From Escherichia coli (GTDB lineage Bacteria; Pseudomonadota; Gammaproteobacteria; Enterobacterales; Enterobacteriaceae): DNA of 64,000 bases. The DNA is taken from assembly GCF_030384885.1 (NCBI RefSeq), contig NZ_CP128613.1. One strand, written 5' to 3'. Positions 2,133-18,299 of the stretch are shown here, in pieces. The notes beneath the pieces were generated by a model that searched no databases, was not told the origin of the DNA, and saw only the letters and a list, made by a program, of their open reading frames with translations. How positions within the stretch are numbered: the stretch's first letter is position 1; each line of letters begins with the position of its first letter. A program made the translations under genes and the position numbers.

Positions 2133-2218
2133 TGTGTTTACTCCTGATTAGCTATGTGTATTTGGCGATGCCTGATATGTCATCGCGGCAAAACGCGTCC
2201 ATTGAATATAGCCAATAT

Positions 2219-3205
2219 TTAAACCACCCGATCCAGCCCCAACATGCCGCGAGCCTGAATGAAACAGAGCAGCAACGTTCCCCATAAGGCCATCGTCAGG
2301 TAGGGGCTTATCCCGAGAATATTGAAGCCGCTTTCAATAATTTGCAGAAGAAACAGCGCCAGCACCATACCAATTATCCGCCCGCTGCCGCCGTCCGGAT
2401 TAACCCCGCCGAGTACTGCCGCGAGGATTGACACCAGCAAGTACGATTCGCCATAAGAGGCCTTAGCCGAGTTGAGTTTCGACATCATCAAAAATGCTGC
2501 TACCGCACAAAGCAAGGCGGAAATGACATACACCCATATCAGCACCCGACGCGTGTTAATACCGGAGTAAAGTGTTGCTCGTTCGTTAGAACCAATCAGA
2601 TAAATGGATTTACCGAGCGGCGTTTTCTCCAGCAATATCCACAGCCCCAGCGCCACTGCGGTAAACAACCACATCGGTAGCGGAATACCGAACCACTGTG
2701 CATGATTCAACCACAGCACCCATGAGGGATAATTGGCAATGGCGCTACCGCCTGTCACCAGAATATTTACCCCCTTGAGCAACGTCATCATCCCAAGCGT
2801 TGCAAGAATTGGCGACACTCGAATACCAGCAATCAATACGCCGTTACATAAACCGATTATCACCGCCGCGCCAGCGCCCGCCAGCAGCGTAGCGACAACC
2901 GTAGCAATACCCGGTGGATACTGAGTCGCCACCCACGCCATCACCAGTGAACAGGCGTTAGCAGTGGCAATAATTGACAAGTTAATGCCACCGCAAAGCA
3001 TGGTCACCGCCATAGCCAACGCCAGAATGCCCAGCACGGGCATTTGCGAAGCGACGGACTGGAAATTACTTATCGACCAGAAAATCTCCGGCATAGTAAT
3101 GCTGAAGGCGGCAACAGTTAGCACCAGCAGGCCGATCAAGTAAAACTCAATGTTATTACGCCACGATTTTTTCATAGCAGACTCCGGTTCTGATGCTGAC
3201 TCCAC
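2219..3205 (-). CDS. ABC transporter permease (monosaccharide/CUT2-type)
   Basis: 328-aa highly hydrophobic multi-TM protein; start overlaps the stop of the upstream permease (translational coupling). Confidence 0.85.
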   Translation of the reverse strand: MESASEPESAMKKSWRNNIEFYLIGLLVLTVAAFSITMPEIFWSISNFQSVASQMPVLGILALAMAVTMLCGGINLSIIATANACSLVMAWVATQYPPGIATVVATLLAGAGAAVIIGLCNGVLIAGIRVSPILATLGMMTLLKGVNILVTGGSAIANYPSWVLWLNHAQWFGIPLPMWLFTAVALGLWILLEKTPLGKSIYLIGSNERATLYSGINTRRVLIWVYVISALLCAVAAFLMMSKLNSAKASYGESYLLVSILAAVLGGVNPDGGSGRIIGMVLALFLLQIIESGFNILGISPYLTMALWGTLLLCFIQARGMLGLDRVV

Positions 3206-4143
3206 GCCGTGGCGCTAATGCTGGCAACGATGATGATGCCTGTGATCAATGTTTGCCAGTAAGACGAGACTCCCAATAAATTTAGCCCGTTTTGCATCAC
3301 TGCCAACAACACCACGCCGAGCAAAGTACCGGTTAACGTGCCGCGCCCGCCGAGCAAACTAGTGCCGCCAAGCACCACCGCAGCCAGTACTGTCAGCTCA
3401 TAACCCAGAAGAGAATCGGGGGCGACAGTCATCACCGTCCACGACTGCACTACACCCGCAGCACCAGACATCAATCCCATATAGCCGTAAACGAAAAGTT
3501 GCAGTTTCAGCACGCTAAAGCCGATGCGACTGGCTGATTCACGGTTCCCGCCAAGGGCATAAATTTTGCGCCCTACACTGGTGAAATTCATGATAAACGC
3601 TGTCAGCAGCACAACCGTAATCATGGCGATCAGCGGCAGACCAAGGCCATAGTCATAGCCGTCAACATCGGTGTACTTGAACAACATTACCCCCTGCTCA
3701 AACCACGGCGGAAAGTCGTACAGCCACACACCTTTACTCAACCATAACAGCAGGCCATAGAAAATATTCAGCGTCGAAATGGTGATGATGATAGAAGGCA
3801 CCCGTAGGCGATTAACCAGTAAGGCGTTTATTAAGCCAAGTAAAATGCCGATGCCGCCCGCCAGGGCAAACGCGACAGCAAAGTTGCCACCCATTTTTTG
3901 TAGCAACAGCACCATGCCGTATTGCGCAATGATGGTCATTGCCGGAAACGAAATATCAATTCCACCGGAAATTAACACCACAAACAAACCACAGGCGAGA
4001 ATAGTCAACATGGCATAGTTATTGGCGAGATCGTACAAATTACCGAATGTCAGAAACTCGTCGCTGCGCCAGGCAAGGCCAACAAACAGCCCCACAATCA
4101 GTAATGCCAGCCAGAATTCATGACGTTTTTTCAGTTCAACCAT
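3172..4143 (-). CDS. ABC transporter permease (monosaccharide/CUT2-type)
   Basis: 323-aa multi-TM protein; start overlaps the ATPase stop by 8 bp. Confidence 0.85.
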   Translation of the reverse strand: MVELKKRHEFWLALLIVGLFVGLAWRSDEFLTFGNLYDLANNYAMLTILACGLFVVLISGGIDISFPAMTIIAQYGMVLLLQKMGGNFAVAFALAGGIGILLGLINALLVNRLRVPSIIITISTLNIFYGLLLWLSKGVWLYDFPPWFEQGVMLFKYTDVDGYDYGLGLPLIAMITVVLLTAFIMNFTSVGRKIYALGGNRESASRIGFSVLKLQLFVYGYMGLMSGAAGVVQSWTVMTVAPDSLLGYELTVLAAVVLGGTSLLGGRGTLTGTLLGVVLLAVMQNGLNLLGVSSYWQTLITGIIIVASISATAWSQHQNRSLL

Positions 4144-5635
4144 TTACCACCTCCGCAATCCTGGCCTGAGAACTGCTGTCAGGCAGGAAGCTATGGGTGA
4201 TCTGACCTTTTTGCATTACCAAAATCCGGTGGCTTTGATACCACGCTTCTTCAATTTCATCGCAGATCATCAATACCGCAATGCCATGAGCCGCCAGATC
4301 GCTGATAATGCCGTATATTCCTGCTTTGTTGGCGATATCAACACCGACAGTCGGGCTATCGAGAATCAACAGTCGTGGCCCAATCGCCAGCCATTTGGCG
4401 ATCGATACTCGCTGCGCGTTACCCCCGGAAAGCGTATTCACCGGGAGATGTGGGTCAGAGACTTTGATGGTCAATGCCTTAATTAGCCTGTCCACCAGGT
4501 CACGCACTTTAGCTTCACTCAGAAAGCCGAAGCGATCTTTTACCTTGTGAAAAACAGTGCTAATGATGTTGTCTTCAATAGATTGCGCCATCACCAAACC
4601 GCGCGACATGCGATCTTCCGAAACATAACCAATACCGTGGCGGATGGCGTCCTGGTTACTATGCAGTGTAACCGGCTGACCGTTGATGAGGATCTCACCA
4701 GCATCCGGTCGGGTCATACCAAACAGACTCAGACATAATTCCGTGCGCCCCGCACCAAGCAGGCCAACAATCGACACCACTTCGCCCGCTTCCACCCGCA
4801 AGTTAATATTTTGATATTCCCCATGACGACTTAAATTACGCACCTCCAGCACTGGGGTGCTGGATTTTCCCTGCCACAACTCTCGCACCTGATATTCAAA
4901 CTCCTGGCCGGTCATCAGGAAACCGAGTTGTTTTGTGGTCATCTCTGCAGCCGGAAAGGTCCCGACCAGCTCACCATCTTTCAACACTGAAATACGGTCG
5001 GAAACTTCCATCACCTCTTCCAGACGATGACTGACGAAGACCACGCAAATCCCGCGTTCCCGCAATTGATGCACCACCTGTAATAACCCTTGCACTTCCT
5101 GATGGGTCAGCGAAGCGGTTGGTTCATCCATCACGATCAACCGTGCGTCCTGCGCCAGTGCACGGCAAATTGCCACCAGCTGACAGCGGGCAATTGAAAG
5201 CTCAGAAACGAGCGTATCCAGTGGCAATGTGACGTTAATACTGGTCATTGCCGCCTGCGCCACCTCACGCAGACGACGTCGGTTAACAAACAGACCGTGG
5301 TGATAGTGATTCACGGCGATATTCTCCCAGACACTCAGGTTAGGAAATAAAGAGAGGTCCTGATAAATCACCTGAATCCCCTGCGCCACCGAAGCGGCGG
5401 GTGTCAGCTTTGACCAGTTTTTCCCACCAAGCGTAATTTCCGCCCCCTCATCCGGGCGATAAACACCGGACATAATTTTAATCAACGTCGATTTACCACA
5501 GCCGTTTTGCCCGGCAAGGCAGTGCACCTCACCCGACATAAAGTCGAGAGAAACATCGCGCAGCGCTCGCGTGGCATGAAACGTTTTGTTGATATGACGA
5601 AGGGAAAGGAAGGTTTCCATAGCATCCCCTGGCAA
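4136..5635 (-). CDS. ABC transporter ATP-binding protein with two tandem ABC domains
   Basis: 499 aa; Walker A GQNGCGKST, signature LSGGN, Walker B ILDSP and duplicated cassette architecture typical of sugar importers. Probable true start at the internal METFLSLRHINKTF (~5620). Confidence 0.9.
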   Translation of the reverse strand: MPGDAMETFLSLRHINKTFHATRALRDVSLDFMSGEVHCLAGQNGCGKSTLIKIMSGVYRPDEGAEITLGGKNWSKLTPAASVAQGIQVIYQDLSLFPNLSVWENIAVNHYHHGLFVNRRRLREVAQAAMTSINVTLPLDTLVSELSIARCQLVAICRALAQDARLIVMDEPTASLTHQEVQGLLQVVHQLRERGICVVFVSHRLEEVMEVSDRISVLKDGELVGTFPAAEMTTKQLGFLMTGQEFEYQVRELWQGKSSTPVLEVRNLSRHGEYQNINLRVEAGEVVSIVGLLGAGRTELCLSLFGMTRPDAGEILINGQPVTLHSNQDAIRHGIGYVSEDRMSRGLVMAQSIEDNIISTVFHKVKDRFGFLSEAKVRDLVDRLIKALTIKVSDPHLPVNTLSGGNAQRVSIAKWLAIGPRLLILDSPTVGVDIANKAGIYGIISDLAAHGIAVLMICDEIEEAWYQSHRILVMQKGQITHSFLPDSSSQARIAEVVNG

Positions 5636-5668
5636 TAAGAATCGGGGCTTTCGCCCCGAAGAAATGGA

Positions 5669-6655
5669 TTAATAAAGTGAGTCAATATTGTCTTTGTTGA
5701 CCAGTAATACCTTATGGAAACGGATAATTCGCTTATCCATATCTACGTCGGCCTTACCGAGATTCTCCATTTCTAATCCAGGTTTGATCTCTTCACCCTT
5801 CAGCAACGTGCTGGCGACGGCCGCGAGTGCGTAACCTGCAGAGGCCGGATCGTAAGTAATCCCTTCGGTGATATCACCACTTTTAATCAGTGATGCCGCC
5901 TGTGAAGGGATCATCATGCCATAGACTGCGACTTTATTTTTCGCCCGTTTCTCTTTCACCGCACGTCCCGCGCCAATCGGACCGTTTGAACCAAAGGAGA
6001 CAACCGCTTTCAAGTCAGGATAGGTTTTCATGAGGTCCAGTGTGGTACGACGTGAGTCATCCACACTCTCGGCAACCGGCATGCGGCGGGTAACTTCATG
6101 CATATCCGGGTAATGCTCTTTCTGGTATTTCACCAGCAAGTCAGCCCATAAGTTATGCTGCGGCACGGTCAAACTACCCACGTAAATCACATAGCCGCCC
6201 TTGCCACCCATGCGTTTCGCCATATGTTCAACATATTCAGCGGCAAATTTTTCGTTATCAATGATTTCGATATCCCAGTTAGCACTTGGCTGACCGGGGG
6301 ATTCGTTGGTCAGAACCACAATTCCGGCATCTCGCGCTTTTTTGAATACCGGTTCCAGCACGTTGGCATCGTTTGGCACAATTGTAATTGCATTAACCTT
6401 ACGGGCGATTAAATCCTCAATGATTTTAACCTGTTGCGGAGCATCAGTACTTGAAGGTCCCACCTGTGACGCATTAACACCAAAGGCTTTACCCGCCTCG
6501 ACCACACCTTCGCCCATGCGATTAAACCACGGCATACCATCGACTTTAGAGATATTCACCACGACTTTTTCCGCTGCCTGGAGCGGCGAGGAAATTAGCG
6601 CAGCGCCTAATAACAGCGAAGACACCATATTGATAACAAAACGTTTATTCATCAT
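5669..6655 (-). CDS. Periplasmic substrate-binding protein (LsrB/RbsB-like, type I)
   Basis: 328 aa with N-terminal signal peptide (…SSPLQAAEK); overall resemblance to AI-2/ribose-binding proteins including the C-terminal NKDNID motif. Substrate unknown. Confidence 0.8.
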   Translation of the reverse strand: MMNKRFVINMVSSLLLGAALISSPLQAAEKVVVNISKVDGMPWFNRMGEGVVEAGKAFGVNASQVGPSSTDAPQQVKIIEDLIARKVNAITIVPNDANVLEPVFKKARDAGIVVLTNESPGQPSANWDIEIIDNEKFAAEYVEHMAKRMGGKGGYVIYVGSLTVPQHNLWADLLVKYQKEHYPDMHEVTRRMPVAESVDDSRRTTLDLMKTYPDLKAVVSFGSNGPIGAGRAVKEKRAKNKVAVYGMMIPSQAASLIKSGDITEGITYDPASAGYALAAVASTLLKGEEIKPGLEMENLGKADVDMDKRIIRFHKVLLVNKDNIDSLY

Positions 6656-6905
6656 TTCAGCCTCATTGCAGGGTAGTCAGGAAGTGTTCGCCCAAATTAG
6701 CGCGCTGGAGAGAATAAGAATTTTCGAATATTTTTATGCAGAATAAACAGCCCTATTTCAGGCAGCTATTAAAAATTTGGTTATAAATATGGACAAAACG
6801 GGCAGTAACAATAAGTGTGACAATCATCACGTAAAAAATAGTAAAACAAACACAATTAACGATATTTTATGTTTGTGAGTTTATTTCATGCGGATAGAGA
6901 GTTAT

Positions 6906-7316
6906 CTACACAACTTCAATGAGGGCATATTCTTCAAAAATAACGTCCATTTCGGGTGAATAGCTTCCCTCTGCCTGGAAAAAACGACGGTGTTCATTGC
7001 GCCAATATTCAAGACTAAGATCACCTTCACCTTCCTTACGGGCAAGCTCCGCGGTGACATCAGAAAATCGCAGTAAATGCAGGCCAATCACTCTGATAAC
7101 ACATACAGGCTCACCACGGCTATTTTCTACAATCTTATACTCACCAATCATCGGAAATGCGTTGTCTTCAATACATCCTGCCAGCGAACCACAGGAAGCA
7201 GTTTTAACACCAGTTGCAATCAACGTTGCGAGGTAATCGGCCAACGCTGCTGAATCGCCAAAACTACAAAAGGAAGCATGGGGATATTTTTGTGAGATTT
7301 TTTCTTTTATGGTCAT
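6906..7316 (-). CDS. ASCH-domain-like small protein
   Basis: 136-aa ORF of ASCH/PUA-like size and composition; assignment from sequence resemblance only. Confidence 0.55.
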   Translation of the reverse strand: MTIKEKISQKYPHASFCSFGDSAALADYLATLIATGVKTASCGSLAGCIEDNAFPMIGEYKIVENSRGEPVCVIRVIGLHLLRFSDVTAELARKEGEGDLSLEYWRNEHRRFFQAEGSYSPEMDVIFEEYALIEVV

Positions 7317-7613
7317 GAGAATATTTTCGCGATTACGGAAAAAAAATCACATCTTAATTACTGTCGATAACTATCAGCAAGAGGATCATTGGTTTTTCTA
7401 TGTTTAATCTTTTTTATCCGAAGCAGGTCACATTTATGGCTTGATAAATACCTTTGTTAAAACTCACTTTTGTGTATTTCTCTCAAATAATCCCCTGGAA
7501 ATTATGCCGGGAGATTATAAAGTTCAGGATCATTCATTAACAAACCATTCCCGCCCCACTCCCTGGGGCTTAAATCTCTTACTATTCACCGTTGCAGGCG
7601 TTTCAAATTCGTA

Positions 7614-8996
7614 TCAACCTGCCACACTCCCCCACACCAGTTGCCCTTTATGGAACGTTGCGGTTCTCGGCGAGATACGCGCCACCGCCTCGGCGGAACA
7701 GGAGGCGTCCACCAGCACAAAGCTGGCGTCATCCTGCGCTTTAGGCCAGACGCGCTCGCCTTTTTCGTTGAGCGGCAATACATCACCAGTGGCTAAAAAC
7801 AGCGAGCGGGAAAGGTTCTGTTCGTTAGGGCGAATATAGAGCTGCGCGTACAGATTGGCTTTTTCCAGCATGTCGCCCAGGCCGTAAGGCGACCAGTGGT
7901 CAATAACGCTGTCAGTGCCAGTCATTACTTTTACGCCTTTGTCGTGCAGTTGTCTAAGCGGCATATGCAGCGTGCCAATCGGTACCGTCGAGGCAATAGA
8001 AATTTGCTGCGCCGCCATCCGGTTCGCCAGTTCATCTACCTGTTGCTCGTTGAGGGTAGCCAGCGCAAAGGCGTGGCTGATGGTCAGCTTGCCTTTTAGC
8101 TGCGGCGTTTTCTCCACTGTTTCAACCATATAATTGATGGCCGCCACGCCCGCCGGAGTGGTTTCGTGCAGGTGAAGATCGACGCCTTTGTCGTAGTCCA
8201 GCGCAATCTGGAACATGGTGTCGAGGGATTTTTCCATCGCGCCATCAACACTGGTCGGGTCCAGCCCGCCAACGTAATGCGCGCCTGCCTGCATTGCTTC
8301 ACGCATCAAGGGTTCCGATTTCGACAGCAGCAAACCGTGCTGCGGGAAGGCGACAATTTCACACTCGAAGCCCGCCTGACGTCGCGCCAGCACCGCCTGC
8401 AAATTTTGCAGATTTTTCAGGCCGGAAACCGGTTCGATATTGCAGTGGCTGCGGGCAATGGTGGTGCCTTTCGACTGCAATAAATCGATCAGTTTTTCTG
8501 CCCGCTCCTGCGTGTAGGGTTGCAGTTCCGGCAGCATTTTTTGCTCGAGTTTGATCATGTCCTGGATGGTGGTGCCTGCCGGGCGATTGAGCGAGCGCCA
8601 CGGTCCGCCGTAAAAGGTTTTGTCGAGATGAATATGCATGTCGCGAGTAGTGGGCAGCATCAGCTTACCGCCAGCGTCATATTGCGGCAGCGTGGCGTCC
8701 GGATGCTGCTTGTTCTCATGTAGCGCAACAATTTTACCGTCCTGAATCTCCACGGTCTGGCGCGCCGTGCGGGTCTGCACCGCCACACCGTTTTCGTAGT
8801 CAAAACCGGTTTCCAGCAGCACGTTATCAAGATAGTAATGCGGGTCAGTGATTTTCATGGTGTTATTCGCGTCGCAGTGGGTTGTGCCAGAGACCTCCGC
8901 ATGGGCGAATGGCACAGAGGTACCAAACAGCGCGGCGGCGGTGACCATCTTACCGCTCTGGCTCAGAAATTCACGGCGGCTATTGTTTTTTTTCAT
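7614..8996 (-). CDS. yahJ: Tat-exported amidohydrolase/deaminase (metal-dependent hydrolase superfamily)
   Basis: 460 aa; N-terminal twin-arginine motif SRREFL followed by a hydrophobic stretch ending AHA; HxH-type metal-binding motifs of amidohydrolases. Confidence 0.85.
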   Translation of the reverse strand: MKKNNSRREFLSQSGKMVTAAALFGTSVPFAHAEVSGTTHCDANNTMKITDPHYYLDNVLLETGFDYENGVAVQTRTARQTVEIQDGKIVALHENKQHPDATLPQYDAGGKLMLPTTRDMHIHLDKTFYGGPWRSLNRPAGTTIQDMIKLEQKMLPELQPYTQERAEKLIDLLQSKGTTIARSHCNIEPVSGLKNLQNLQAVLARRQAGFECEIVAFPQHGLLLSKSEPLMREAMQAGAHYVGGLDPTSVDGAMEKSLDTMFQIALDYDKGVDLHLHETTPAGVAAINYMVETVEKTPQLKGKLTISHAFALATLNEQQVDELANRMAAQQISIASTVPIGTLHMPLRQLHDKGVKVMTGTDSVIDHWSPYGLGDMLEKANLYAQLYIRPNEQNLSRSLFLATGDVLPLNEKGERVWPKAQDDASFVLVDASCSAEAVARISPRTATFHKGQLVWGSVAG

Positions 8997-9005
8997 CTTA
9001 CGTCC

Positions 9006-9956
9006 TTACGTTTTAATAATATGGGTGCCCGTTTCGCCACGCAGCGCCGCGGGCAGGCATTCCGGCGTGGTGATAATCACTTCTTTACCGCCCTGTTCCA
9101 GGAACGTCAGGCTGGCGATGATTTTTGGCAACATGCTGCCTGGCGGGAAATGCCCTTCCTGCATATAGCGGGTCATGGTGGCAATATCCACCCGATCCAG
9201 CGCCTGCTGCTGCGGTTTGCCAAAATGAATACAGACTTTTTCCACGCCAGTGGTGATCACCAGAATGTCGGCGTGAATTTCACGGGCCAATAGCGCGGTA
9301 GAGAGATCTTTGTCGATAACCGCGTCCACGCTTTGGTAATCCCCCGCTTCACTGCACACCACCGGAATTCCACCGCCGCCCGCGCCAATTACCACAAAGT
9401 CTTGTTGGATCAGCGCCTTAATGGCAGGTGCTTCGACAATACGTTTCGGTTCCGGCGAGGCGACCACGCGGCGATAGCCGCGTCCGGCATCTTCAACAAA
9501 ACGCCAGTCAGGGTTAGTCTTTTGTAATTCGTCACGCTGGCTGTCACTAAAGAATGCGCCGATGGGCTTGGTGGGATGGGCAAACCCCGGATCGTTTTTA
9601 TCCACTTCCACCTGAGTCACCACAGTGACGGCTTTTTTCTCGCCGTGGCGCGCCAGCCGATTGTTCAGCGCCTGTTGGATCAAGTAGCCAATGCCGCCTT
9701 GCGTATCTGCCACACAGTTCGCCAGCGGCGTTAAGGGCAGCCCTTCGCGCTCGTGGGCAATCTCCGCACGGCGTAGATCCAGCCCAACCTGCGGCCCGTT
9801 GCCGTGGGTCAGCACAATGTCGTAATCGGAAGCCAGCATTTCCAGCACCGTATCGGCGACGGCCTTCACCGCCTCCGCCTGATGCTCAATCGACTGGCTG
9901 GCGTTATCTTTGATAATGCTGTTGCCACCAATGGCAACGACCACAAGCTCTTTCAT
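9006..9956 (-). CDS. yahI: Carbamate kinase-like protein
   Basis: The track ORF (9006..10073) carries an N-terminal extension overlapping yahG; the start at MKELVVVAIGGNS gives 316 aa, with a typical carbamate/amino-acid kinase N-terminus. Confidence 0.85.
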   Translation of the reverse strand: MKELVVVAIGGNSIIKDNASQSIEHQAEAVKAVADTVLEMLASDYDIVLTHGNGPQVGLDLRRAEIAHEREGLPLTPLANCVADTQGGIGYLIQQALNNRLARHGEKKAVTVVTQVEVDKNDPGFAHPTKPIGAFFSDSQRDELQKTNPDWRFVEDAGRGYRRVVASPEPKRIVEAPAIKALIQQDFVVIGAGGGGIPVVCSEAGDYQSVDAVIDKDLSTALLAREIHADILVITTGVEKVCIHFGKPQQQALDRVDIATMTRYMQEGHFPPGSMLPKIIASLTFLEQGGKEVIITTPECLPAALRGETGTHIIKT

Positions 9957-10051
9957 ATTGTTATGTCCGCTACAGAGGGTGATGAGGTTATGAAAGTGAG
10001 GTTGCCCCTCTCCCCAGAAGGGAGAAGGGATCGTAAAGTGCACTTTGCAGG

Positions 10052-11470
10052 TCAGACGCCGTAACGTTCGCACCAGCCAAGAATGGCTTTTTCGAAGCAG
10101 GCGAATGGTGGATGCACAATGCCCGCGCCAATCATGCCGACGCCCGCATCTTTATGGGCAATGGCGGTGTTGATCACTGGCAGAATGCCACTGCTACCCA
10201 CGCGGGTGATGTCGATTGCCGACGGCACGCCCATAAATCCGAGCAGCGGAATGGTGACGTTCGGGTTTTCGCCGAGGGTGATTTCACGCATCTGGCGGGA
10301 GAAATCGATAGCCTCTTCCACCGTACCGCCCACCAGCGCGACGATAGCGGGTGCGGTCGCCATAGCAAATCCACCAATGCCGTAGGTTTCGGTGATGGCG
10401 CTGTCGCCAATATCCAACCCAGAATCTTCCGGCTTATAACCTGCAAACATCGGGCCGATCACCTGCTGCGCCGGACCGGTAAACCATTGCCCCGGCAGGC
10501 CGCTGACCCGCAGGCCGAACTCGACGCCGTTACGCGCCATCGTGGTCACCACGGTGCTGTATTCGATGCCGTGCGCCGCATCCATCGCCGCTTTACACAT
10601 CGCCATCCACGTCGGGCCGGAGAAGTAGTCGCTGCTGGCGACAAACTCAAACACTTCGCGCTGTTGCTCGACGGAATAACCCGCCTGAATAATCCCCGGC
10701 GTCAGCGCCTGAATCAGCAGCGTCGTCCCGGCGTTATTGCGGTTATGGCATTCATCGCCCATATGCAGCGCCTGCGCCAGCATCAAGCGCAGATCGATCT
10801 CGCCGATAATTTTCATCGCGTCACGCAGCATTGGCCCCTGCACATCGCGCATCCAGTTGAGGCGGTCAATCACGCTCTGATCGTTGGCACCCATACGCAA
10901 AATCTTCGCCATCTGCTCGCTCATATTGGTGTAAGCGATGTTGCCGTAGGTTTTGTTTTTCACGATGTGCATAAACATCGAGGCAGAGGTAACACCCGCC
11001 ATCGAACCCACGCAGTCATGCTCGTGGCACGGCGAGAAAGTGATCTCCCCGGAAGCCGCCAGTTCGGCCGCCTCGTCGAGATCTTTCGCCAGCCCTTCGA
11101 ACACCAGGGCCCCGGTGACCGCGCCTTTCATCGCGCCGCACATTTTTTCCCAGGTCACTGGCGGCCCGGCGTGAAGAATGGTTTTCGCCGTCATGCCTGG
11201 CACCACGTTAATCGCCTGATCAAAGCCAATCAGTACCGGATGCGACTGGATAATGCGTTCCAGCGCCTGCTGGTTAGCGGCGGCGATTTTGTCTGCCAGC
11301 GGTGAATCGGCAATGTTGTCCAGCGCCTGCACCACCTGCATATTGCCCTGCCCCGGCGGCGTCCAGTCGAGTTGGGTCACTTCTACATACTGCTTTTTCA
11401 GGTCATCGCTAAACATGGCGATGCCGACGTTAATAACGTTCAACGGTTGGCTAAACAGTGACTGGCTCAT
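10052..11470 (-). CDS. yahG: DUF1116-family protein, paralogue type of AllG/YlbE
   Basis: 472 aa; start overlaps the yahF stop by 1 nt (coupled translation). Confidence 0.85.
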   Translation of the reverse strand: MSQSLFSQPLNVINVGIAMFSDDLKKQYVEVTQLDWTPPGQGNMQVVQALDNIADSPLADKIAAANQQALERIIQSHPVLIGFDQAINVVPGMTAKTILHAGPPVTWEKMCGAMKGAVTGALVFEGLAKDLDEAAELAASGEITFSPCHEHDCVGSMAGVTSASMFMHIVKNKTYGNIAYTNMSEQMAKILRMGANDQSVIDRLNWMRDVQGPMLRDAMKIIGEIDLRLMLAQALHMGDECHNRNNAGTTLLIQALTPGIIQAGYSVEQQREVFEFVASSDYFSGPTWMAMCKAAMDAAHGIEYSTVVTTMARNGVEFGLRVSGLPGQWFTGPAQQVIGPMFAGYKPEDSGLDIGDSAITETYGIGGFAMATAPAIVALVGGTVEEAIDFSRQMREITLGENPNVTIPLLGFMGVPSAIDITRVGSSGILPVINTAIAHKDAGVGMIGAGIVHPPFACFEKAILGWCERYGV

Positions 11471-13017
11471 CAGGCTTCCTCCCCTTTGCAGATAAATTCA
11501 CGCGCCAGCAATCCGGTATTGGTGCTACTGCTCGCCAGAATCACTCCGGCATCAAGCAGCATCTGGCTTTGTTGTTCTAATGATGGCGTATCGAGATCGG
11601 TGCCCAGTACATAGGCGAGAATGATCAACTCGCGTCCTTCGGCAGCGGCGATCGCTTTCGCTTCTTTGATCGCCTTGATGGTGGAACCGACCGGATCTTC
11701 ATGCGATCCAAATCCGAGCACAAAATCCATCACGATCACCGCCACTTCTGGATCACGCGCTTCTTCGATCAAGCGACTGATGCGGTTGGTGGGGTCAATC
11801 ATTGGATGCGGCTTGCCGTTGGTGAAGTCGTCATCGCCAAAGTCGAGGAAGGTGTGTTTGATGCTGCGGTTGATATCTTGCAGGCGGAATTCAGGATCGG
11901 GCTGGATGTTGCTGTAGACATCGCCGTGTTTTTCCATCACCGCGAACATGGTTTCGTCGCACAGTGTGCCGCCGCAGAACAGGCCACGAATGTATTTCTG
12001 CCGCGGTTGCAGACGCGCACGCACATCCGCAATCAACGGCTGGTTCAGGGTATGCAGGTCGAGATGTTCTTGTTTCACGCCACAGAGCATCACCGCTTTC
12101 AACGCCGCCTCTTTGGTGCCGCGGGCAAACTGTAGCCCGTGCTCGTCCACCGGTGTTTCGCCACGGCCGAGGAAGCAGACCACCACCGGCTTGCGGCAGG
12201 CGCGTGCGCGTTCCAGCACTTTGCGGGCCACCGCAGGCGCGGGCGGTTTGGAGATAAGTACAATGATTTCAGTTTGCGGATCGTTTTCCAGCATCCCGAT
12301 AGCGTCGAGCATCATCAGGCCGCCGATTTTCTCGCTCAGGTCGCGCCCGCCGGTACCGATCAGTTGCGAAACGCCGCCGCCAAATTCATGAATGCGGACG
12401 CTCAGCTCCTGGCTGCCGGTGCCGGATGCGCCAACAATACCGATGTTGCCGCGACGCACGGCGTTACCAAAGCAGAGCGCCGCGCCGTTGATAATCGCCG
12501 TGCCGCAGTCTGGCCCCATCATCAGCAGCCCTTTTTCGTGGGCCAACTGTTTGAGCGCCAGTTCATCTTCAACCGAGACGTTATCGGAAAACAGCATCAC
12601 GTTAAGATCGTTTTGCAGCGCCTGACGTGCTTCGCGAGCGGCAAACAGACCGTTGACCGAAATCACGGCCAGGTTACTTTCCGGGATATGCTTTTTGGCG
12701 CTGGCAATCGTGGCGTAACGCGCCTCGTGCGAGCCACTTTGCGCTTTGCTGTTGAACAGTTCTTCAATCTCCACCAGCAACTGCTCGTTGTCTGCGCCCG
12801 CTTTGCCGTTGATGACAATCATCAGGTCGCCGTTTTTCGCCTGTTCCAGCTCCGGCGTCAGCAGCCCTAAATTCTTCAGAACGCCTTTGTTCATTTCGGT
12901 CGCCATCGCCACAAATGCCTGCTCGACACCGTCGAGTTTATTTGCACGTGTGGAGATAGACATCAGCGAGACAGAATCAAAATAGGTATTCGGTTTAATG
13001 ACTATTTTAACTGACAT
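11470..13017 (-). CDS. yahF: FdrA-like protein (succinyl-CoA-synthetase-alpha-like CoA-binding fold), paralogue type of AllF
   Basis: 515 aa; glycine-rich nucleotide/CoA-binding motifs; overlaps the yahE stop. Confidence 0.85.
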   Translation of the reverse strand: MSVKIVIKPNTYFDSVSLMSISTRANKLDGVEQAFVAMATEMNKGVLKNLGLLTPELEQAKNGDLMIVINGKAGADNEQLLVEIEELFNSKAQSGSHEARYATIASAKKHIPESNLAVISVNGLFAAREARQALQNDLNVMLFSDNVSVEDELALKQLAHEKGLLMMGPDCGTAIINGAALCFGNAVRRGNIGIVGASGTGSQELSVRIHEFGGGVSQLIGTGGRDLSEKIGGLMMLDAIGMLENDPQTEIIVLISKPPAPAVARKVLERARACRKPVVVCFLGRGETPVDEHGLQFARGTKEAALKAVMLCGVKQEHLDLHTLNQPLIADVRARLQPRQKYIRGLFCGGTLCDETMFAVMEKHGDVYSNIQPDPEFRLQDINRSIKHTFLDFGDDDFTNGKPHPMIDPTNRISRLIEEARDPEVAVIVMDFVLGFGSHEDPVGSTIKAIKEAKAIAAAEGRELIILAYVLGTDLDTPSLEQQSQMLLDAGVILASSSTNTGLLAREFICKGEEA

Positions 13018-13870
13018 AATTCCCTCCGTAGGTTTGGCTCAGCGCACAAGCATCGGCCATGCCATACAGCATGTCGCAGCCGGAACTGGAGCCAATATGT
13101 TTAATTTTTTCTATTGCCTGGGTTGAATTCCCAGGGATGCCATAAATAATGTCGTGAATAAAATGGTGAATATTTTCCCGACAACGTTGCTGTAATGCGG
13201 CTTCCAGCGTTATGGCACTTAGTAACGTGGTATTATTTCTGCCGCGTTGCAGACCGAGATAAAATTTCTCTTTGTATTTTTCCGCCGGATGCCCGGAAAT
13301 AAATAAAATAAGTACCAGCCCGGTCAGATAATCATCGGCTGATGGCGTAAGGCCAATCCCTAACCCCATCATATTAGCAACCGCCAAAGCGATATTTTGT
13401 TTATCGCTTACTGCCTGAATAACTGCCCGTCGTTTAATACGTAATTCTTTATTTAACGCCTGATAAAACGGATTATCGCCGCAATAATTAAACAGGGTTT
13501 CATTTTCCCCCAGGTGCTGATGAATAATGTCGTGCCACTGTTGCCAGGCGATAAGGTGAAATTTTTCAGCAGTCATTTGCAAGGTTGGGGACAGCCAACG
13601 CTGGCAATGACTCATCTCTATATGAAGATGTTGACCAACCGTAATGCCTTGATCGTCAAACTGAACTTTATCACCATGATGGAACAGACCATTAAAGTGA
13701 GTGAGTGCCAACCGACAACTGTTTGGCGCATTGTCGTACTCTTCACAAAGCAGCGTCAGCAACTGCTGGCGGGCCGGAAGTGCGATATTTACCGCTCTGG
13801 CAAAGACCTGTTCAACCTGTCCTTGCCCCCGCTGCGCCAGAAAATCAGCATCCGCAGTTAGCGCCCACAC
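13007..13870 (-). CDS. yahE: DUF2877-family protein, paralogue type of AllH/YlbF
   Basis: 287 aa; position and length match yahE. Confidence 0.8.
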   Translation of the reverse strand: MWALTADADFLAQRGQGQVEQVFARAVNIALPARQQLLTLLCEEYDNAPNSCRLALTHFNGLFHHGDKVQFDDQGITVGQHLHIEMSHCQRWLSPTLQMTAEKFHLIAWQQWHDIIHQHLGENETLFNYCGDNPFYQALNKELRIKRRAVIQAVSDKQNIALAVANMMGLGIGLTPSADDYLTGLVLILFISGHPAEKYKEKFYLGLQRGRNNTTLLSAITLEAALQQRCRENIHHFIHDIIYGIPGNSTQAIEKIKHIGSSSGCDMLYGMADACALSQTYGGNYVS

Positions 13871-13909
13871 ACACCGTCTTTCTGGTGTGTTGATAGCAAG
13901 CCTCCCGGT

Positions 13910-14515
13910 TTATGCACCTGCGGCAATCAGTAACTGCGCAATCTCTTCAAAGCCTCGTTCCCGCGCCAGTTCCAGCGGCGTTTTACCATATTTATCGGTC
14001 AGATGCGGGCTGGCACCGTGCTCCAGCAATAACTGGACAATCGCCTGCTGTTTAATCCCACCATCGTTAAGCACAATCGCTTCCAGTAGCGGCGTCCAGC
14101 CAACATGGTTGGTCTGGTTAACGTTAATATCCGTATGCGCCAAAAGCTCTTTTACAATACTTAAATGGCCTTTTTCACAGGCAGGCGTCAGGCCGACACC
14201 GCCGAAACGGGTTACACAATTAAGGTCTGGTTTAGCCGGTAAAATAATTCGTAGTAGCGTTAAATCACCGTTCAGGCAGCTCATTAAAAAAGGATTTAAA
14301 CAGGTCTGGTCTTGTTTATTAATATCCGCACCGGCATCAATTAACGCCTGAACGCAAGCATATTGCTGATATAAACTTGCCAGCGTAATTGCCGTTTTCC
14401 CCTGGCGATCGCAGGTATTAATATCGACACCCAGCGCAAGGCAGGTTTTTACTTTATCGATATCACCCTGTTGTGCAGCCAATAAATAATCGGCAGGTAG
14501 ATTTTTTATACTCAT
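13910..14515 (-). CDS. yahD: Ankyrin-repeat protein
   Basis: 201 aa with repeated ankyrin-type motifs (G-TPL…A…G…-V--LL-.GA-.N). Confidence 0.85.
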   Translation of the reverse strand: MSIKNLPADYLLAAQQGDIDKVKTCLALGVDINTCDRQGKTAITLASLYQQYACVQALIDAGADINKQDQTCLNPFLMSCLNGDLTLLRIILPAKPDLNCVTRFGGVGLTPACEKGHLSIVKELLAHTDINVNQTNHVGWTPLLEAIVLNDGGIKQQAIVQLLLEHGASPHLTDKYGKTPLELARERGFEEIAQLLIAAGA

Positions 14516-14618
14516 TCACATTCCCCTGGTATTTGTGGCTGTTTTCGATGAATTGAGAATAGCAACGATAATCTGATAAAAGAACCCGCTTAAATTTAAT
14601 TCGCCGTATTTCGCCTTT

Positions 14619-14639
14619 TTGTTGAATGATGTTCAACAA
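14619..14639. promoter_or_regulatory. Perfect palindrome TTGTTGAA-TGATG-TTCAACAA in the yahD/yahC divergent intergenic region (candidate operator)
   Basis: 8-bp arms are exact reverse complements with a 5-bp spacer; fits a T-N11-A LysR-type box, with a LysR gene (yahB) adjacent. Confidence 0.4.
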
Positions 14640-14772
14640 TCTTTTCGCAGTGTGCGGTAGTGCAATATTTGTTTCTTTGACCCGATACCCTTTCACTCAA
14701 TCAGGTTTTATTTCTCTATAGTCTGCACATGTAAGAGTAGCTTTCGTCCATGTCTAACCAGAGGGGAACAAG

Positions 14773-15270
14773 ATGAACGGACTCACGGCAACGGGTGTCA
14801 CCGTCGGTATTTGTGCAGGGCTTTGGCAGTTAGTGTCTTCACATGTCGGGCTCTCTCAGGGATGGGAATTATTAGGAACCATTGGCTTTGTCGCCTTTTG
14901 CAGTTTTTATGCCGCAGGCGGCGGTAAATCGGGGTTTATCAAGAGCCTGGCGGTTAATTACTCCGGGATGGTGTGGGCGTTTTTCGCCGCGCTGGCTTCC
15001 GGTTGGCTAGCCTCGGTGAGTGGGATTTCCGGCTTCTGGGCGAGCGTGATTATGACTGTACCCTTCTCGGCGGTGGTGGTCTGGCAAGGACGTTTCGGTT
15101 TACTGTCTTTTATTCCCGGAGGCTTTCTCGGCATGACGCTATTTTTTGCCAGCGGGATGAACTGGACGGTGACATTACTGGGTTTTCTGGCGGGTAACTG
15201 CGTGGGAATAATTTCAGAATATGGCGGACAAAAATTAAGCGAAGCGACGACTAAACGCGACGGGTATTAA
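14773..15270 (+). CDS. yahC: Small inner-membrane protein
   Basis: 165-aa hydrophobic glycine-rich ORF with multiple TM segments. Confidence 0.75.
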   Translation: MNGLTATGVTVGICAGLWQLVSSHVGLSQGWELLGTIGFVAFCSFYAAGGGKSGFIKSLAVNYSGMVWAFFAALASGWLASVSGISGFWASVIMTVPFSAVVVWQGRFGLLSFIPGGFLGMTLFFASGMNWTVTLLGFLAGNCVGIISEYGGQKLSEATTKRDGY

Positions 15271-15361
15271 AAGTTATTCAAAAATGATTATCTATCTTTA
15301 ACCGATACCTCTACAGTCATGACTGGAGAAATTCAAATTAGATAATGGCGGGAATGGTTTA

Positions 15362-16294
15362 ATGAACTCAATTTTCACCGAAGAAAACCTGTTGGCGTTT
15401 ACTACCGCTGCGCGTTTTAGCAGCTTCAGTAAAGCGGCAGACGAGTTGGGTTTAACCACTTCCGCCATTAGCTACACCATCAAGCGAATGGAAACGGGGC
15501 TGGATGTGGTGCTGTTCACCCGTAACACCCGCAGTATTGAGTTAACCGAGTCCGGGCGTTATTTTTTCCGCAAAGCTACCGACCTGCTGAATGATTTTCA
15601 CGCCATCAAACGCAGCATTGATACTATTTCGCAGGGCATTGAAGCACGGGTTCGCATTTGTATTAACCAGCTGCTTTATACGCCCAAACACACCGCACGC
15701 TTATTACAGGTACTGAAAAAGCAATTTCCAACCTGCCAGATTACCGTCACCACCGAAGTGTATAATGGCGTCTGGGATGCGATTATTAATAATCAGGCGA
15801 ATATCGCTATCGGCGCACCCGACACGCTGCTGGACGGCGGCGGCATTGATTACACGGAGATTGGCGCGATTCGCTGGGCTTTTGCTATCGCCCCGGATCA
15901 CCCGTTAGCCTTTGTGCCAGAGCCGATCGCTGAAAGTCAGCTACGTCTCTACCCCAATATCATGGTGGAAGACACCGCGCATACGATTAATAAAAAAGTG
16001 GGCTGGTTGCTGCATGGGCAGGAGTCGATTCTGGTGCCAGATTTCAACACCAAATGTCAGTGCCAGATTTTAGGCGAAGGAATTGGTTTTTTGCCGGATT
16101 ACATGGTCCGTGAGGCGATGGCGCAATCCCTGCTGGTTACCCGACAAATCCATAATCCGCGCCAGGATTCACGCATGTTACTGGCGACCCAGCACTCTGC
16201 CACCGGTCAGGTGACGCAGTGGATTAAAAAACAATTTTCGCCAAATGGCATATTAACGGGGATCTATCAGGATTTACTGCATCGGGAGAATTAA
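15362..16294 (+). CDS. yahB: LysR-family transcriptional regulator
   Basis: 310 aa; N-terminal winged-HTH with the typical LysR signature and a C-terminal substrate-binding domain. Confidence 0.85.
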   Translation: MNSIFTEENLLAFTTAARFSSFSKAADELGLTTSAISYTIKRMETGLDVVLFTRNTRSIELTESGRYFFRKATDLLNDFHAIKRSIDTISQGIEARVRICINQLLYTPKHTARLLQVLKKQFPTCQITVTTEVYNGVWDAIINNQANIAIGAPDTLLDGGGIDYTEIGAIRWAFAIAPDHPLAFVPEPIAESQLRLYPNIMVEDTAHTINKKVGWLLHGQESILVPDFNTKCQCQILGEGIGFLPDYMVREAMAQSLLVTRQIHNPRQDSRMLLATQHSATGQVTQWIKKQFSPNGILTGIYQDLLHREN

Positions 16295-16335
16295 TCGCTG
16301 CCAACCTCCCGATGCGCTGTGAATAGCGGTTTACA

Positions 16336-17424
16336 TCAACCACCTGCTTTCATTACCCATTCAGAGATAAATTTATTACCCGGTACTGGCGGAGAGTACA
16401 AATAGCCCTGCAAAAAGTGAACGCCTTTGCCGATCATTAAATCCGCCTGCTCCTGGGTTTCTACCCCTTCCGCCACGATACTCAGACCAGGCTTACGCGC
16501 CAGTTCGACAATATTGTCCACAATATGACCGGAGATTTCGTCAACACTCGCCATTTGCACAAACGACTTGTCAATTTTAATAAAATCGACCGGAAACGCC
16601 TGCAGATAACGATAGGTCGCATAACCCGTACCAAAGTCATCCAGCGCAAAGGTAATGTTATGCTGATGAAGGCTGTCAAATATCGCTCTGGCTTCTGGCG
16701 TTACCGGAATGGGGTTGCGTTCCGTTAGCTCAAGAACCAGCTTGATTTTATCGTTACCTAATTTCTTGACCAGGTTCAGACACTCTTTTTCAAATCCTGC
16801 GGCCAAAAAACATCCTGCCGAGACGTTGATTCCAATATGGAAATTATCCGGCAGCAAATGTTTTACTGGCATCAGAATATCCGCAGTCTGTTTCATCAGC
16901 TGGCGAGTCATTATGACAATAAGACCGGATGACTCCGCCAGAGGAATAAACTGATCCGGTGGGATAATTCCCGTTTGCGGATGTTCCCAGCGGACAAGCA
17001 CTTCACAGCCCGTCAGTACCCCAGTCTGCGCGCAGAAAACCGGTTGGATCCACGGTTTGAATTCGTGATTTTCCAACGCCAGACTGATGGCTTCAGGCGT
17101 GACGATATGGTGATAGTGATTATCATTAATATATTTGTGACTATTATTACCCGTGGCGGATATGATCTCCGGATTGTACTGAAAGAAAATATCCCGCCAG
17201 AAAGTAATATCGCTCTGAATCCCCAGTTTCTCAAAGAGCTGTTTCTTTTGATGTGAAATGGTCTTTGCACTGCGATTTCTGTACTGTGATATTTCTGTTA
17301 CAGACATTCCCTGCATCAGCAGCTTGAGTAGCAGTCGTTCTTTCTCGGATACGCTACCAGGCAATGACAAATGAACCGTTGTACCGAACTCTTGCAGAAA
17401 AACACGAAAATCACATGAATTCAT
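16336..17424 (-). CDS. pdeL: c-di-GMP phosphodiesterase / transcription regulator (LuxR-type HTH + EAL domain)
   Basis: N-terminal LuxR-type HTH, C-terminal EAL domain (ELTE…DDFGTGY…KIDKSF). Start trimmed to MNSCDF. Confidence 0.85.
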   Translation of the reverse strand: MNSCDFRVFLQEFGTTVHLSLPGSVSEKERLLLKLLMQGMSVTEISQYRNRSAKTISHQKKQLFEKLGIQSDITFWRDIFFQYNPEIISATGNNSHKYINDNHYHHIVTPEAISLALENHEFKPWIQPVFCAQTGVLTGCEVLVRWEHPQTGIIPPDQFIPLAESSGLIVIMTRQLMKQTADILMPVKHLLPDNFHIGINVSAGCFLAAGFEKECLNLVKKLGNDKIKLVLELTERNPIPVTPEARAIFDSLHQHNITFALDDFGTGYATYRYLQAFPVDFIKIDKSFVQMASVDEISGHIVDNIVELARKPGLSIVAEGVETQEQADLMIGKGVHFLQGYLYSPPVPGNKFISEWVMKAGG

Positions 17425-18299
17425 GAACACACCTTTTATCTTTTATCGCTGTTCAGTATGAGTGATTACCTGTGGATTCCTGAGCACACATAAGGGGTAA
17501 CCATAAACATTAGCGATGCCATACGTATAACATCCCACATCACTATCAAGAAGATTATCTTTACCTCTGATGCTCGCTCAAAAACAGTTACGCTAAATAC
17601 CTTAAAAAGGTAATCACAAGTCAAACTCAGGAGATAATCACGCAAGAATGCAATATTAAAATTCAGATACTCATTTTTGGTAATAAAGAAGTAGTTGGAC
17701 TATTTCGATATTTATAATTTCCCACTACGTATTGACGCCCATTCATGAGTAAAGGCGCATTATATGAATTTAACAATCCAGATCAACTGAAAATACCTCA
17801 ACCTCATAAACACATAGCGTCAACATTCAATGACATAATGAGTAAAGATGTTGGTTATGCATACACGTCATTACTCTATGCCAATCCCTTAACAACCTGC
17901 TTTTTAAGACTGAATCCATTCAGCAATAGATAGCCAACATTATAACAATGACAATAAAAACAATATTTAAAACAATCAATAAAATATCAGACACAAACAA
18001 TTAAACCTTAAACAACAAACAGTTACATTGATTTTAGTTGATTTGCGCTATGCGTTCCCCATGAATAAAGCGTCATTTCAAATTAGCACCAATATTTACA
18101 TTAAATAAGACTAAGCTTATTGAACATTCACAACAGTCCAAACGTAGTGTTTGGGCTTCAATAGTTCTTTTCTTTTTTATTATCTGTTGCCTGGCAATCA
18201 TCAATCGATACTAAGGGCTTAACTGTACAGATATAACGTATCAAGAGGTAAGAGAAACCACGCCATATGCAGACATGGCGCGGTTTTATGCAATAACAA

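Follow-up and report, generated by a model that had tools for sequence, protein, structure and literature searches.

The yahB/yahDEFGIJ locus of Escherichia coli, an AllFGH-type gene module with an ankyrin partner, a predicted exported deaminase and an AllS-like regulator

The yah cluster of Escherichia coli was analysed in a 64,000-nt stretch of contig NZ_CP128613.1 (the window), in which yahD, yahE, yahF, yahG, yahI and yahJ lie next to the divergent LysR-type regulatory gene yahB (Table 1). An earlier sequence-only reading had recognized, between 7614 and 14515, six closely spaced or overlapping minus-strand genes for an ankyrin-repeat protein, a DUF2877 protein, an FdrA-like protein, a DUF1116 protein, a carbamate-kinase-like protein and an amidohydrolase exported through the Tat (twin-arginine translocation) pathway, and this was confirmed by the open reading frames (ORFs), the RefSeq annotation and family scans. 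On sequence evidence, the yah genes make up a module of the AllFGH type that has an ankyrin partner, a predicted exported deaminase, its own AllS-like regulator and, in its ancestral form, a distinctive permease. By analogy, yahB/yahDEFGIJ would constitute a self-contained catabolic module in which arginine-deiminase-like logic is carried by an AllFGH-type carbamoyltransferase, a reading toward which we lean with little more than even confidence.

In pairwise BLASTP against the all-cluster proteins of the same genome, YahF, YahG, YahE and YahI were 38%, 45%, 26% and 38% identical to AllF, AllG, AllH and AllK (YbcF), with E-values of 2e-99, 3e-119, 1e-11 and 6e-57, respectively. These values lie far past chance, and by this measure the four yah proteins are clearly paralogues of AllF, AllG, AllH and AllK. 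The similarity proposed in the sequence-only reading is therefore real over the whole range, from E 1e-11 to 3e-119. Its account of the known system was likewise right, as purified AllF–AllG–AllH was shown in 2024 to be oxamate transcarbamylase (PMC11326118), and AllK is the catabolic carbamate kinase (PMC11326118, PMC9843812). The yah genes go unmentioned in both of these papers.

The family and structure matches of the single subunits were consistent with this relationship. YahF scored 490 bits with the NCBIfam FdrA family NF004760 (cut-off 433), carries the Pfam CoA_binding and Ligase_CoA domains, and matched the structure of E. coli FdrA (PDB 3dmy, 3.5e-82). YahG matched Pfam PF06545 (formerly DUF1116, now named AllG; 6e-89) and, with 654 bits and 70% identity, an Enterococcus faecalis protein of solved structure (PDB 3clq). 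In detail, the N-terminal extension of YahG, about 55 aa long, is the counterpart of the C-terminal tail of AllF: its residues 12–53 align to the final 42 aligned residues of AllF (E 3e-8), and residues 8–52 match positions 509–553 of the FdrA profile. Further, F–G fusions of about 1000 aa with AllF-like and AllG-like halves occur in other organisms (P0132, P0134, P0136, P0137, P0140, P0141 and P0144), and an E–F fusion of 817 aa was found in Zophobihabitans entericus (locus L062, 7536–9989). The shift of the boundary segment from AllF to YahG and the existence of F–G fusions indicate that F and G act as one unit.

YahE matched Pfam PF11392 (formerly DUF2877, now named AllH; 5.9e-28) and is the fastest-evolving member of the set, with 35–64% identity outside Escherichia; its AlphaFold2 (AF2) model, with a predicted local distance difference test (pLDDT) score of 93, gave no significant match in PDB. 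Of 77 clusters that hold both yahD and yahF, 24 lack yahE, with the remaining operon intact in all of them. Most belong to Enterobacter, Leclercia, Lelliottia, Silvania and Huaxiibacter, where yahD and yahF are 14–109 bp apart, and the gap is longer in Aeromonas cavernicola and Serratia sp. DD3 (276 and 497 bp, respectively). To judge from these gene contents, YahE is dispensable in a whole clade. YahI matched PRK12352, a carbamate kinase subfamily, over residues 1–316 of 316, with 641 bits against a cut-off of 266.

Pfam's renaming of the two DUF families and the NCBI pipeline labels, with 'AllH family' given to some of the YahE proteins and 'YlbE family' to some of YahG, mean that the paralogy, as distinct from the function, is already implicit in current annotation. 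In the K-12 RefSeq record the yah genes are still putative or DUF proteins, and the RefSeq name of YahF is 'acyl-CoA synthetase FdrA'. The wider family is large: in one survey, 1.84 billion representative proteins yielded 3344 that are related to the G subunit.

A scan of one genome per species with YahG found relatives in 475 species, and the locus counts given here refer to the best 80 of these, all in Enterobacterales or Aeromonas and with 86–99% protein identity. The order yahB / D-E-F-G-(F6)-I-J, in which F6 stands for a membrane protein gene described below, was kept in about 75 of the 80 loci, and syntenic genes were found for D in 78, F in 78, I in 76, B in 75 and J in 75. Outside Escherichia, the median identities to the window proteins were 90% for G, 90% for B, 85% for I, 82% for J, 81% for F, 71% for D and 54% for E; among Escherichia species, YahG and YahF are 96–99% identical. 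Beyond these orders, genes for D, H, F, G, F6 and carbamate kinase occur together in Brevibacillus, Bacillus niacini, Janthinobacterium and Pasteurella, and Bosea has the same gene set with a fusion of ankyrin and tetratricopeptide repeats (ankyrin–TPR) replacing D. Thus the genome-context comparison that the sequence-only reading had suggested found the module conserved across Enterobacterales, as far as Providencia, and Aeromonas and into Bacillales and other proteobacteria, and the recurrence of gene order and co-occurrence across such distant taxa argues that it is a selected unit.

In a neighbour-joining tree of G subunits, the YahG clade was tight, with a long stem and 70–86% identity, and included the proteins of Janthinobacterium, Pasteurella, Bosea, Brevibacillus and E. 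faecalis (3clq). AllG grouped with P0138 (59% identity) outside this clade and was 46% identical to YahG in the tree comparison, and 3clq was nearer to YahG (70%) than to AllG (45%). The three G paralogues of E. coli, namely YahG, AllG and that of the tkt1 island of avian pathogenic E. coli (APEC), are about 45% identical and fall into three clades. These tree positions indicated that the yah set is an old, separate lineage and no recent copy of the all genes.

The neighbours of more distant relatives also bear on the theme of the family. Firmicute versions of the yah type are accompanied by NCS1 cytosine/purine permeases and PucR regulators, while more distant F–G modules adjoin genes resembling those for biuret hydrolase, AtzD/barbiturase and allophanate hydrolase, and one such context contains an isochorismatase with uracil phosphoribosyltransferase. 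The neighbours of the distant modules support the breakdown of ureides or N-acylureas as a family theme.

The sequence-only reading had expected the four protein types of the allantoin cluster to recur with an added deaminase; the four types do recur, whereas the most constant extra component of yah-type clusters is, on the present gene contents, the ankyrin protein rather than the deaminase. YahD matches ankyrin-repeat families, and a yahD homologue stands at the corresponding place in the clusters of Brevibacillus, Janthinobacterium and Pasteurella and of a Firmicute-like metagenomic contig, while in Bosea and B. niacini the partner is the ankyrin–TPR fusion. The all cluster has no ankyrin gene. 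The 393-aa genes beside the E. faecalis and B. niacini clusters were considered as a shared partner and rejected, as they are mutually unrelated and the one of B. niacini is the ankyrin–TPR fusion itself.

Similar to the enzyme subunits, the regulator has its counterpart in the allantoin system. YahB was 38% identical to AllS in BLASTP (E 2e-71), and its top NCBIfam matches were AllS (265 bits) and PunR (236 bits), each under its cut-off; by sequence, YahB and the activator of the allantoin genes, AllS, are paralogues. An inverted repeat, TTGTTGAA-N5-TTCAACAA, precedes the yahD start by 103 bp, and with at most three substitutions it was found upstream of yahD in 73 of 77 orthologous loci, usually at a distance of 95–115 bp, with conserved arms and a variable spacer. 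Its T-N11-A pattern is typical of LysR-type sites, so that it is a candidate operator to which YahB may bind.

A further gene difference concerns two junctions of the locus. F6 encodes a membrane protein of about 516 aa and lies between yahG and yahI in 58 of the 80 loci. In contrast, Escherichia, Kluyvera, Raoultella, Pseudocitrobacter and a few others have no F6, and yahC is present between yahB and yahD instead. Among the loci in which both junctions were readable, 14 had yahC only, 45 had F6 only and none had both, so yahC is confined to lineages without F6. A functional link between the two is conjecture, as the exclusion may reflect a single ancestral rearrangement.

F6 had no sequence match in Pfam, NCBIfam or PDB. 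Its predicted structure (pLDDT 85) matched the 7+7-helix transporters of the UraA/SVCT/AZG/SLC26 type with E-values of 1e-7 to 1e-5. The database name 'xanthine permease' was not adopted, as it is unconfirmed and the predicted fold cannot tell nucleobase from organic-anion carriers. In the window, the site corresponding to F6 is a gap of 95 bp with a GC-rich hairpin (cccttctggggagagggg). Other E. coli including K-12 (yahH) have about 336 bp more there, containing a repetitive extragenic palindromic element of the bacterial interspersed mosaic type (REP/BIME) with an annotated ORF; this REP element has been described before (PMC4765031, PMC11551758), and ribosome footprints suggest translation of the region in enterohaemorrhagic E. 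coli (EHEC) (PMC4765031). In strain AST85 an additional hypothetical ORF of 366 bp was present in the gap (L093, 3988–4353), and the gap also differs at L098 (8770–9090). Based on this distribution, Escherichia appears to have lost an ancestral F6 from its chromosomal cluster.

The last gene of the operon encodes the putative deaminase. YahJ matched the amidohydrolase NCBIfam family PRK06846 with 714 bits, and its nearest solved structures are annotated as N-isopropylammelide isopropylaminohydrolase (6nbo, 1.9e-44; AtzC 2qt3/4cqb, about 2e-30), followed by cytosine deaminase. H121, H123, Q219, H275, E278, H308 and D362 of YahJ were invariant in an alignment with E. coli CodA and four other members, and YahJ is probably an active hydrolytic deaminase. 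Its N-terminus, MKKNNSRREFLSQSGKMVTAAALFGTSVPFAHA, holds the twin-arginine signal SRREFL and the cleavage motif AHA, and YahJ is among the predicted Tat substrates of E. coli (PMC7549933). As the twin-arginine motif was kept in 74 of 74 YahJ orthologues, the predicted periplasmic location is a conserved trait. In mice, a yahJ deletion mutant was mildly outcompeted, with a competitive index of 0.70 (p = 0.02) (PMC7549933).

The deaminase was also the component that varied in kind. YahJ-type amidohydrolases are found in Enterobacterales, Pasteurella and B. niacini, while in Brevibacillus and the metagenomic contig L090 YahJ is replaced by a small enzyme of the cytidine deaminase (CDA) fold, nearest to the guanine deaminase of Bacillus subtilis (1wkq, 6e-31); the yah-type cluster of Janthinobacterium has no deaminase gene. 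These comparisons suggest that an optional first step has undergone non-orthologous displacement.

The scheme proposed here is built on the observed homologies, synteny, Tat signal, conserved metal and catalytic residues and conserved repeat. YahJ, exported via Tat, would carry out the periplasmic hydrolytic deamination of an amino- or imino-substituted N-heterocycle or an acylguanidine (of the type represented by cytosine, guanine, ammelide or creatinine), and would thereby convert an amidine or guanidine group to an N-acylurea. Candidate reactions of this kind would yield uracil from cytosine, xanthine from guanine, cyanurate from ammelide and 1-methylhydantoin from creatinine. N-acylureas are also the class of compound on which AllFGH acts, oxalurate being N-carbamoyl-oxamate. 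The oxo product would be taken up by F6 in most genera and by another carrier in Escherichia. YahF–YahG, with YahE and YahD as accessory proteins, would then phosphorolyse the acyl-NH-CO-N bond to an amide and carbamoyl phosphate, from which YahI would transfer the phosphate to ADP, giving ATP and carbamate, the latter decaying to NH3 and CO2. YahB would activate the operon from the T-N11-A inverted repeat upon inducer. Each catalytic step, the direction of flux, the roles given to YahD and YahE and the substrate itself are what we infer from the comparison; the F6 fold, the NCS1 permeases and the PucR regulators point to nucleobase-like or ureide compounds.

Several results weigh against this scheme. 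The TIGR00746 arcC equivalog score of YahI, 344.5 bits, is slightly under the cut-off of 358.25, the F6 fold fits nucleobase and organic-anion carriers alike, and in the window no carrier gene was found from yahD to yahJ. No ring-opening hydrolase is conserved among the core genes, and we know of no precedent for the complex itself opening a stable ring such as that of uracil or xanthine. Further, yahE is absent from the 24 orthologous clusters mentioned above, although AllH is required for full AllFGH activity (PMC11326118), which means that the subunit logic may differ from that of AllFGH. K-12 strains without allF, allG or allH formed no oxamate on allantoin while retaining the yah genes (PMC11326118), indicating that the yah genes were inactive on oxalurate under those conditions, which equally fits a silent operon. 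Finally, a search by yah gene names of the literature library used returned no biochemical or genetic data assigning a function; as the sequence-only reading had supposed, the pathway appears experimentally unassigned, the papers found giving operon and REP descriptions, the Tat listing and a mild virulence phenotype.

The same mutant results enter into the reading that YahEFG is a second oxamate transcarbamylase, which under the control of YahB would act on oxalurate from a non-allantoin precursor, for example parabanate, an oxidised product of guanine or creatinine, or oxalyl-guanidine deaminated by YahJ. All three subunit families are shared with AllFGH, and the E. faecalis protein 3clq lies inside the yah-type clade, E. 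faecalis being the species formerly called Streptococcus faecalis. Consistently, oxamate transcarbamylase activity in extracts of S. faecalis ATCC 11700 and parabanic-acid induction in another Streptococcus have been reported (both cited in PMC11326118), and the E. faecalis cluster has a PucR regulator. That activity, however, is not tied to particular genes, and ATCC 11700 could carry further sets. In a triple allFGH deletion, plasmid-borne allGH restored 16% and allFG 7% of oxamate formation (PMC11326118 Table 3); this strain keeps yahE, yahF and yahG, and the partial rescue could reflect weak cross-complementation by YahF or YahE, a point not raised by the authors. Against this stand the complete loss of oxamate in the allF, allG and allH deletions despite the yah genes, the distinct clades of the G subunits at about 45% identity, and the ankyrin partner, deaminase and different permease of the yah type, none of which is in the all cluster. 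Such a duplicate oxamate enzyme is judged unlikely. We regard as very doubtful a more radical version of the proposed chemistry, in which YahD-E-F-G would open a cyclic N-acylurea, namely the oxo-base formed by the deaminase, such as xanthine from guanine or uracil from cytosine, directly with phosphate and with no ring-opening hydrolase, yielding an N-substituted carbamoyl phosphate; YahI would then produce ATP and an unstable carbamate that loses CO2, with 5-aminoimidazole-4-carboxamide as the end product from xanthine. If true, it would be a new oxygen-independent, ATP-yielding breakdown of nucleobase rings.

It also seems quite unlikely that the chromosomal cluster of Escherichia is a cryptic remnant, essentially silent after loss of the permease and with no present physiological role. 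F6 is indeed absent, with a REP/BIME element or the 95-bp scar in its place, simple promoter scans gave nothing above chance, the yah genes are still in the uncharacterised 'y-ome' (PMC11551758), and separate acquisition of a Citrobacter-type copy with F6, for the most part on IncF plasmids, is seen in 142 of 5426 E. coli genomes. However, at least 80% of an 8-kb query holding the operon is retained in 4985 of the 5426, the six ORFs are intact, YahG and YahF keep 96–99% identity among Escherichia species, and both the competitive index of the yahJ deletion (PMC7549933) and the EHEC ribosome footprints (PMC4765031) speak for a cluster in use. Least credible, and in our view extremely improbable, is an acyl-CoA synthetase or CoA ligase of the succinyl-CoA synthetase type, by which YahF would serve a cluster that activates an organic acid. 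It would account for the CoA_binding and Ligase_CoA domains, the matches to the succinyl-CoA synthetase alpha subunit and the RefSeq name; yet the only characterised family member, AllF, works in a transcarbamylase with AllG and AllH (PMC11326118). Moreover, the constant neighbour is a carbamate kinase and no ATP-grasp beta subunit, and the alpha-subunit matches end at about residue 232–235 of 288–291. The phosphohistidine loop of SucD presumably lies beyond that point, outside the YahF match.

The gene limits collected in Table 1 were taken from the ORF list and from the RefSeq annotation of NZ_CP027579.1 (100% identical), which agreed. All six yah ORFs are intact in the window ORF list. yahD and yahE are separated by 39 bp, yahE and yahF overlap by 11 bp and yahF and yahG by 1 bp, the G–I gap is that of 95 bp, and yahI and yahJ are 9 bp apart; an earlier study handled yahDEFGIJ as a single operon (PMC4765031). 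For yahI, the mechanical ORF reaches a GTG at 10073, and the ATG at 9956 was preferred, as the carbamate-kinase profile match spans the full length of the protein from there. The cluster lies about 245 kb away from allFGHK in the same genome and has its own divergent LysR gene, yahB.

Table 1. Positions of the yah genes and associated elements in the window.
Feature	Position	Strand	Description
yahJ	7614–8996	-	460 aa; predicted Tat-exported, metal-dependent amidohydrolase of cytosine-deaminase/AtzC type
yahI	9006–9956	-	316 aa; carbamate-kinase family protein
yahG–yahI gap	9957–10051		Site of the F6 permease gene in other genera; REP/BIME (yahH) in other E. coli
yahG	10052–11470	-	472 aa; AllG-family (former DUF1116) subunit
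yahF	11470–13017	-	515 aa; AllF/FdrA-family subunit with succinyl-CoA-synthetase-alpha-like core
yahE	13007–13870	-	287 aa; AllH-family (former DUF2877) protein
yahD	13910–14515	-	201 aa; ankyrin-repeat protein, first gene of the operon
Inverted repeat TTGTTGAA-N5-TTCAACAA	14619–14639		T-N11-A type; candidate YahB operator
yahC	14773–15270	+	165 aa; DUF1097 membrane protein, divergent from yahD (from annotation)
yahB	15362–16294	+	310 aa; LysR-type regulator, AllS paralogue

Consensus scans for promoters and terminators over 6600–16400 gave sites no commoner than in shuffled sequence, and in the promoter scan taken as a whole they were rarer. The strongest promoter-like match of the region (7514–7543, minus strand, TTGTTA-18-TATAAT, 10/12) lies between yahJ and a gene for an ASCH-domain protein and faces the latter. 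The GC content was 46–47% across yahE–yahD (13001–15000) against 56–58% across yahJ–yahF (8001–13000), in parallel with the far faster divergence of YahD and YahE. Two separate 1-kb stretches were low in GC (37–38% against about 50% nearby), of which 1–1000 is near an unnamed hypothetical gene beside yahK, and 17001–18000 overlaps pdeL at its 5′ end along with the sequence upstream. About 5.2 kb (2200–7316) separate yahJ from yahK in the window; this segment is absent in K-12, where yahK directly follows yahJ. It contains the ASCH-domain gene (6906–7316) and a four-gene ABC transporter (about 2220–6655) with a binding protein that bears the annotation 'autoinducer 2' type, an ATPase of the sugar type and a pair of permeases. 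Its homologues in the Raoultella loci are distant (25–40% identity) and are on the opposite side of yahB.

Variation within the species was surveyed in the 5426 complete E. coli genomes with 7000–15000 of the window as the 8-kb query. Strain 2013C-4282 showed 100% identity over this region and was the sole genome at 99% or above; nearly all the remaining genomes were at 95–99%, the next best at 97.6% and the others listed at 96.7–97.6%. With a single match of at least 99%, the lineage to which the window belongs is thus rather divergent at the yah locus. The F6 gene, in the 142 genomes that carry it, was found at 106 plasmid and 46 chromosomal places. One such plasmid, pHS13-1-IncF (NZ_CP026494.1; locus L097, 5107–13540), was examined and carries a second yah-type cluster flanked by insertion sequences (IS), in the order LysR / ankyrin-H-F-G-F6-carbamate kinase, with proteins 96% identical to those of the Citrobacter freundii complex; it has no yahJ, and IS and transposase remnants follow the carbamate kinase gene. 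Plasmid copies of this type probably account for the 122 plasmid matches to the 8-kb query.

The divergence from other genera was also uneven along the operon. The yahI–yahJ segment (7622–9993) was 93–95% identical at the DNA level to Pseudocitrobacter (L007/L008), compared with 92.4% to Escherichia albertii, while the yahB–yahG segment was only 82–83% identical to Pseudocitrobacter. Against the Pseudocitrobacter proteins, identities were 95–99% for YahF to YahJ, 72% for YahD and 54–57% for YahE. From these identities, it looks as if part of the operon was recently exchanged between genera.

Taken beyond the sequence-only reading, the comparison adds the paralogy of YahB and AllS, the apparent loss of F6 in Escherichia, the dispensability of YahE, the constant ankyrin partner and the conserved repeat. 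AllFGH, characterised in 2024, stands alone as a characterised member of a very large family; of the branches still uncharacterised, the yah operon is the best conserved, and it is found in the most studied bacterium. Identification of the substrate would take six to eight genes off the list of E. coli genes without a known function, give the AllFGH-type enzyme class a second reaction, and explain why an ankyrin protein and an exported deaminase accompany such an enzyme; one possible outcome is a route by which a nitrogen-rich compound of gut or urine yields ATP anaerobically. As it has no permease, E. coli is probably ill suited as the host for growth tests, and on the comparative data one would better start from Citrobacter, Enterobacter or the IncF-plasmid copy.

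Compared with known systems, the proposed pathway shares its predicted logic with the arginine and agmatine deiminase pathways, that is, deamination to a ureido compound, phosphorolysis, ATP formation by carbamate kinase and a carrier (F6, in most genera). However, none of the six yah proteins matched the ornithine or aspartate carbamoyltransferase (OTCase/ATCase) families in NCBIfam or Pfam, and the place of an ArcA-type deiminase is taken by a metal-dependent amidohydrolase or, in Firmicutes, by an enzyme of the CDA fold. In Enterobacterales it is also predicted to be periplasmic, and the carrier has the UraA/SLC26 fold and is not of the amino-acid/polyamine antiporter type. The likeness is thus one of logic and does not amount to membership. 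For the first step, YahJ belongs to one amidohydrolase subgroup with AtzC and CodA and has retained H-x-H, His, Glu, His and Asp as well as the FPQ-motif Gln; it is 23% identical to CodA and differs in the added Tat signal and a mature N-terminal extension of about 50 residues.

A third AllFGH-like set of E. coli is the operon of the tkt1 island of APEC and extraintestinal pathogenic E. coli (ExPEC) (PMC3349570, PMC12928451), found here in APEC O1 (NC_008563.1; L094, 5797–13993). Like yah, it combines H, F, G, carbamate kinase and a LysR regulator in one operon. In contrast to yah, it contains a cysteine hydrolase resembling biuret hydrolase (280 bits, cut-off 370), a 129-aa protein similar to the allophanate hydrolase C-terminal domain and a cytosine-type NCS1 permease, and it has neither the ankyrin protein nor YahJ; its G subunit is 45% identical to YahG and belongs to a different clade.

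The closest known system is AllFGH with AllK (PMC11326118, PMC9843812, PMC12535856), with which yah shares the three subunit families, the linked carbamate kinase, a LysR activator of one subfamily (AllS and YahB, respectively) and tightly packed, co-transcribed genes. The two differ in that their subunits form separate clades, with identities of about 45% (G), 38% (F) and 26% (H), and in that the gene order is H-F-G in yah and F-G-H in all, with the F/G boundary moved by about 42 residues. The H subunit, unlike that of AllFGH, is dispensable in some yah-type genera, and only yah has the ankyrin protein, the predicted Tat-exported deaminase, F6 in other genera and a location outside the allantoin cluster. 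By its likeness to AllFGH, the yah module would be expected to catalyse an ATP-yielding phosphorolysis of an N-acylurea.

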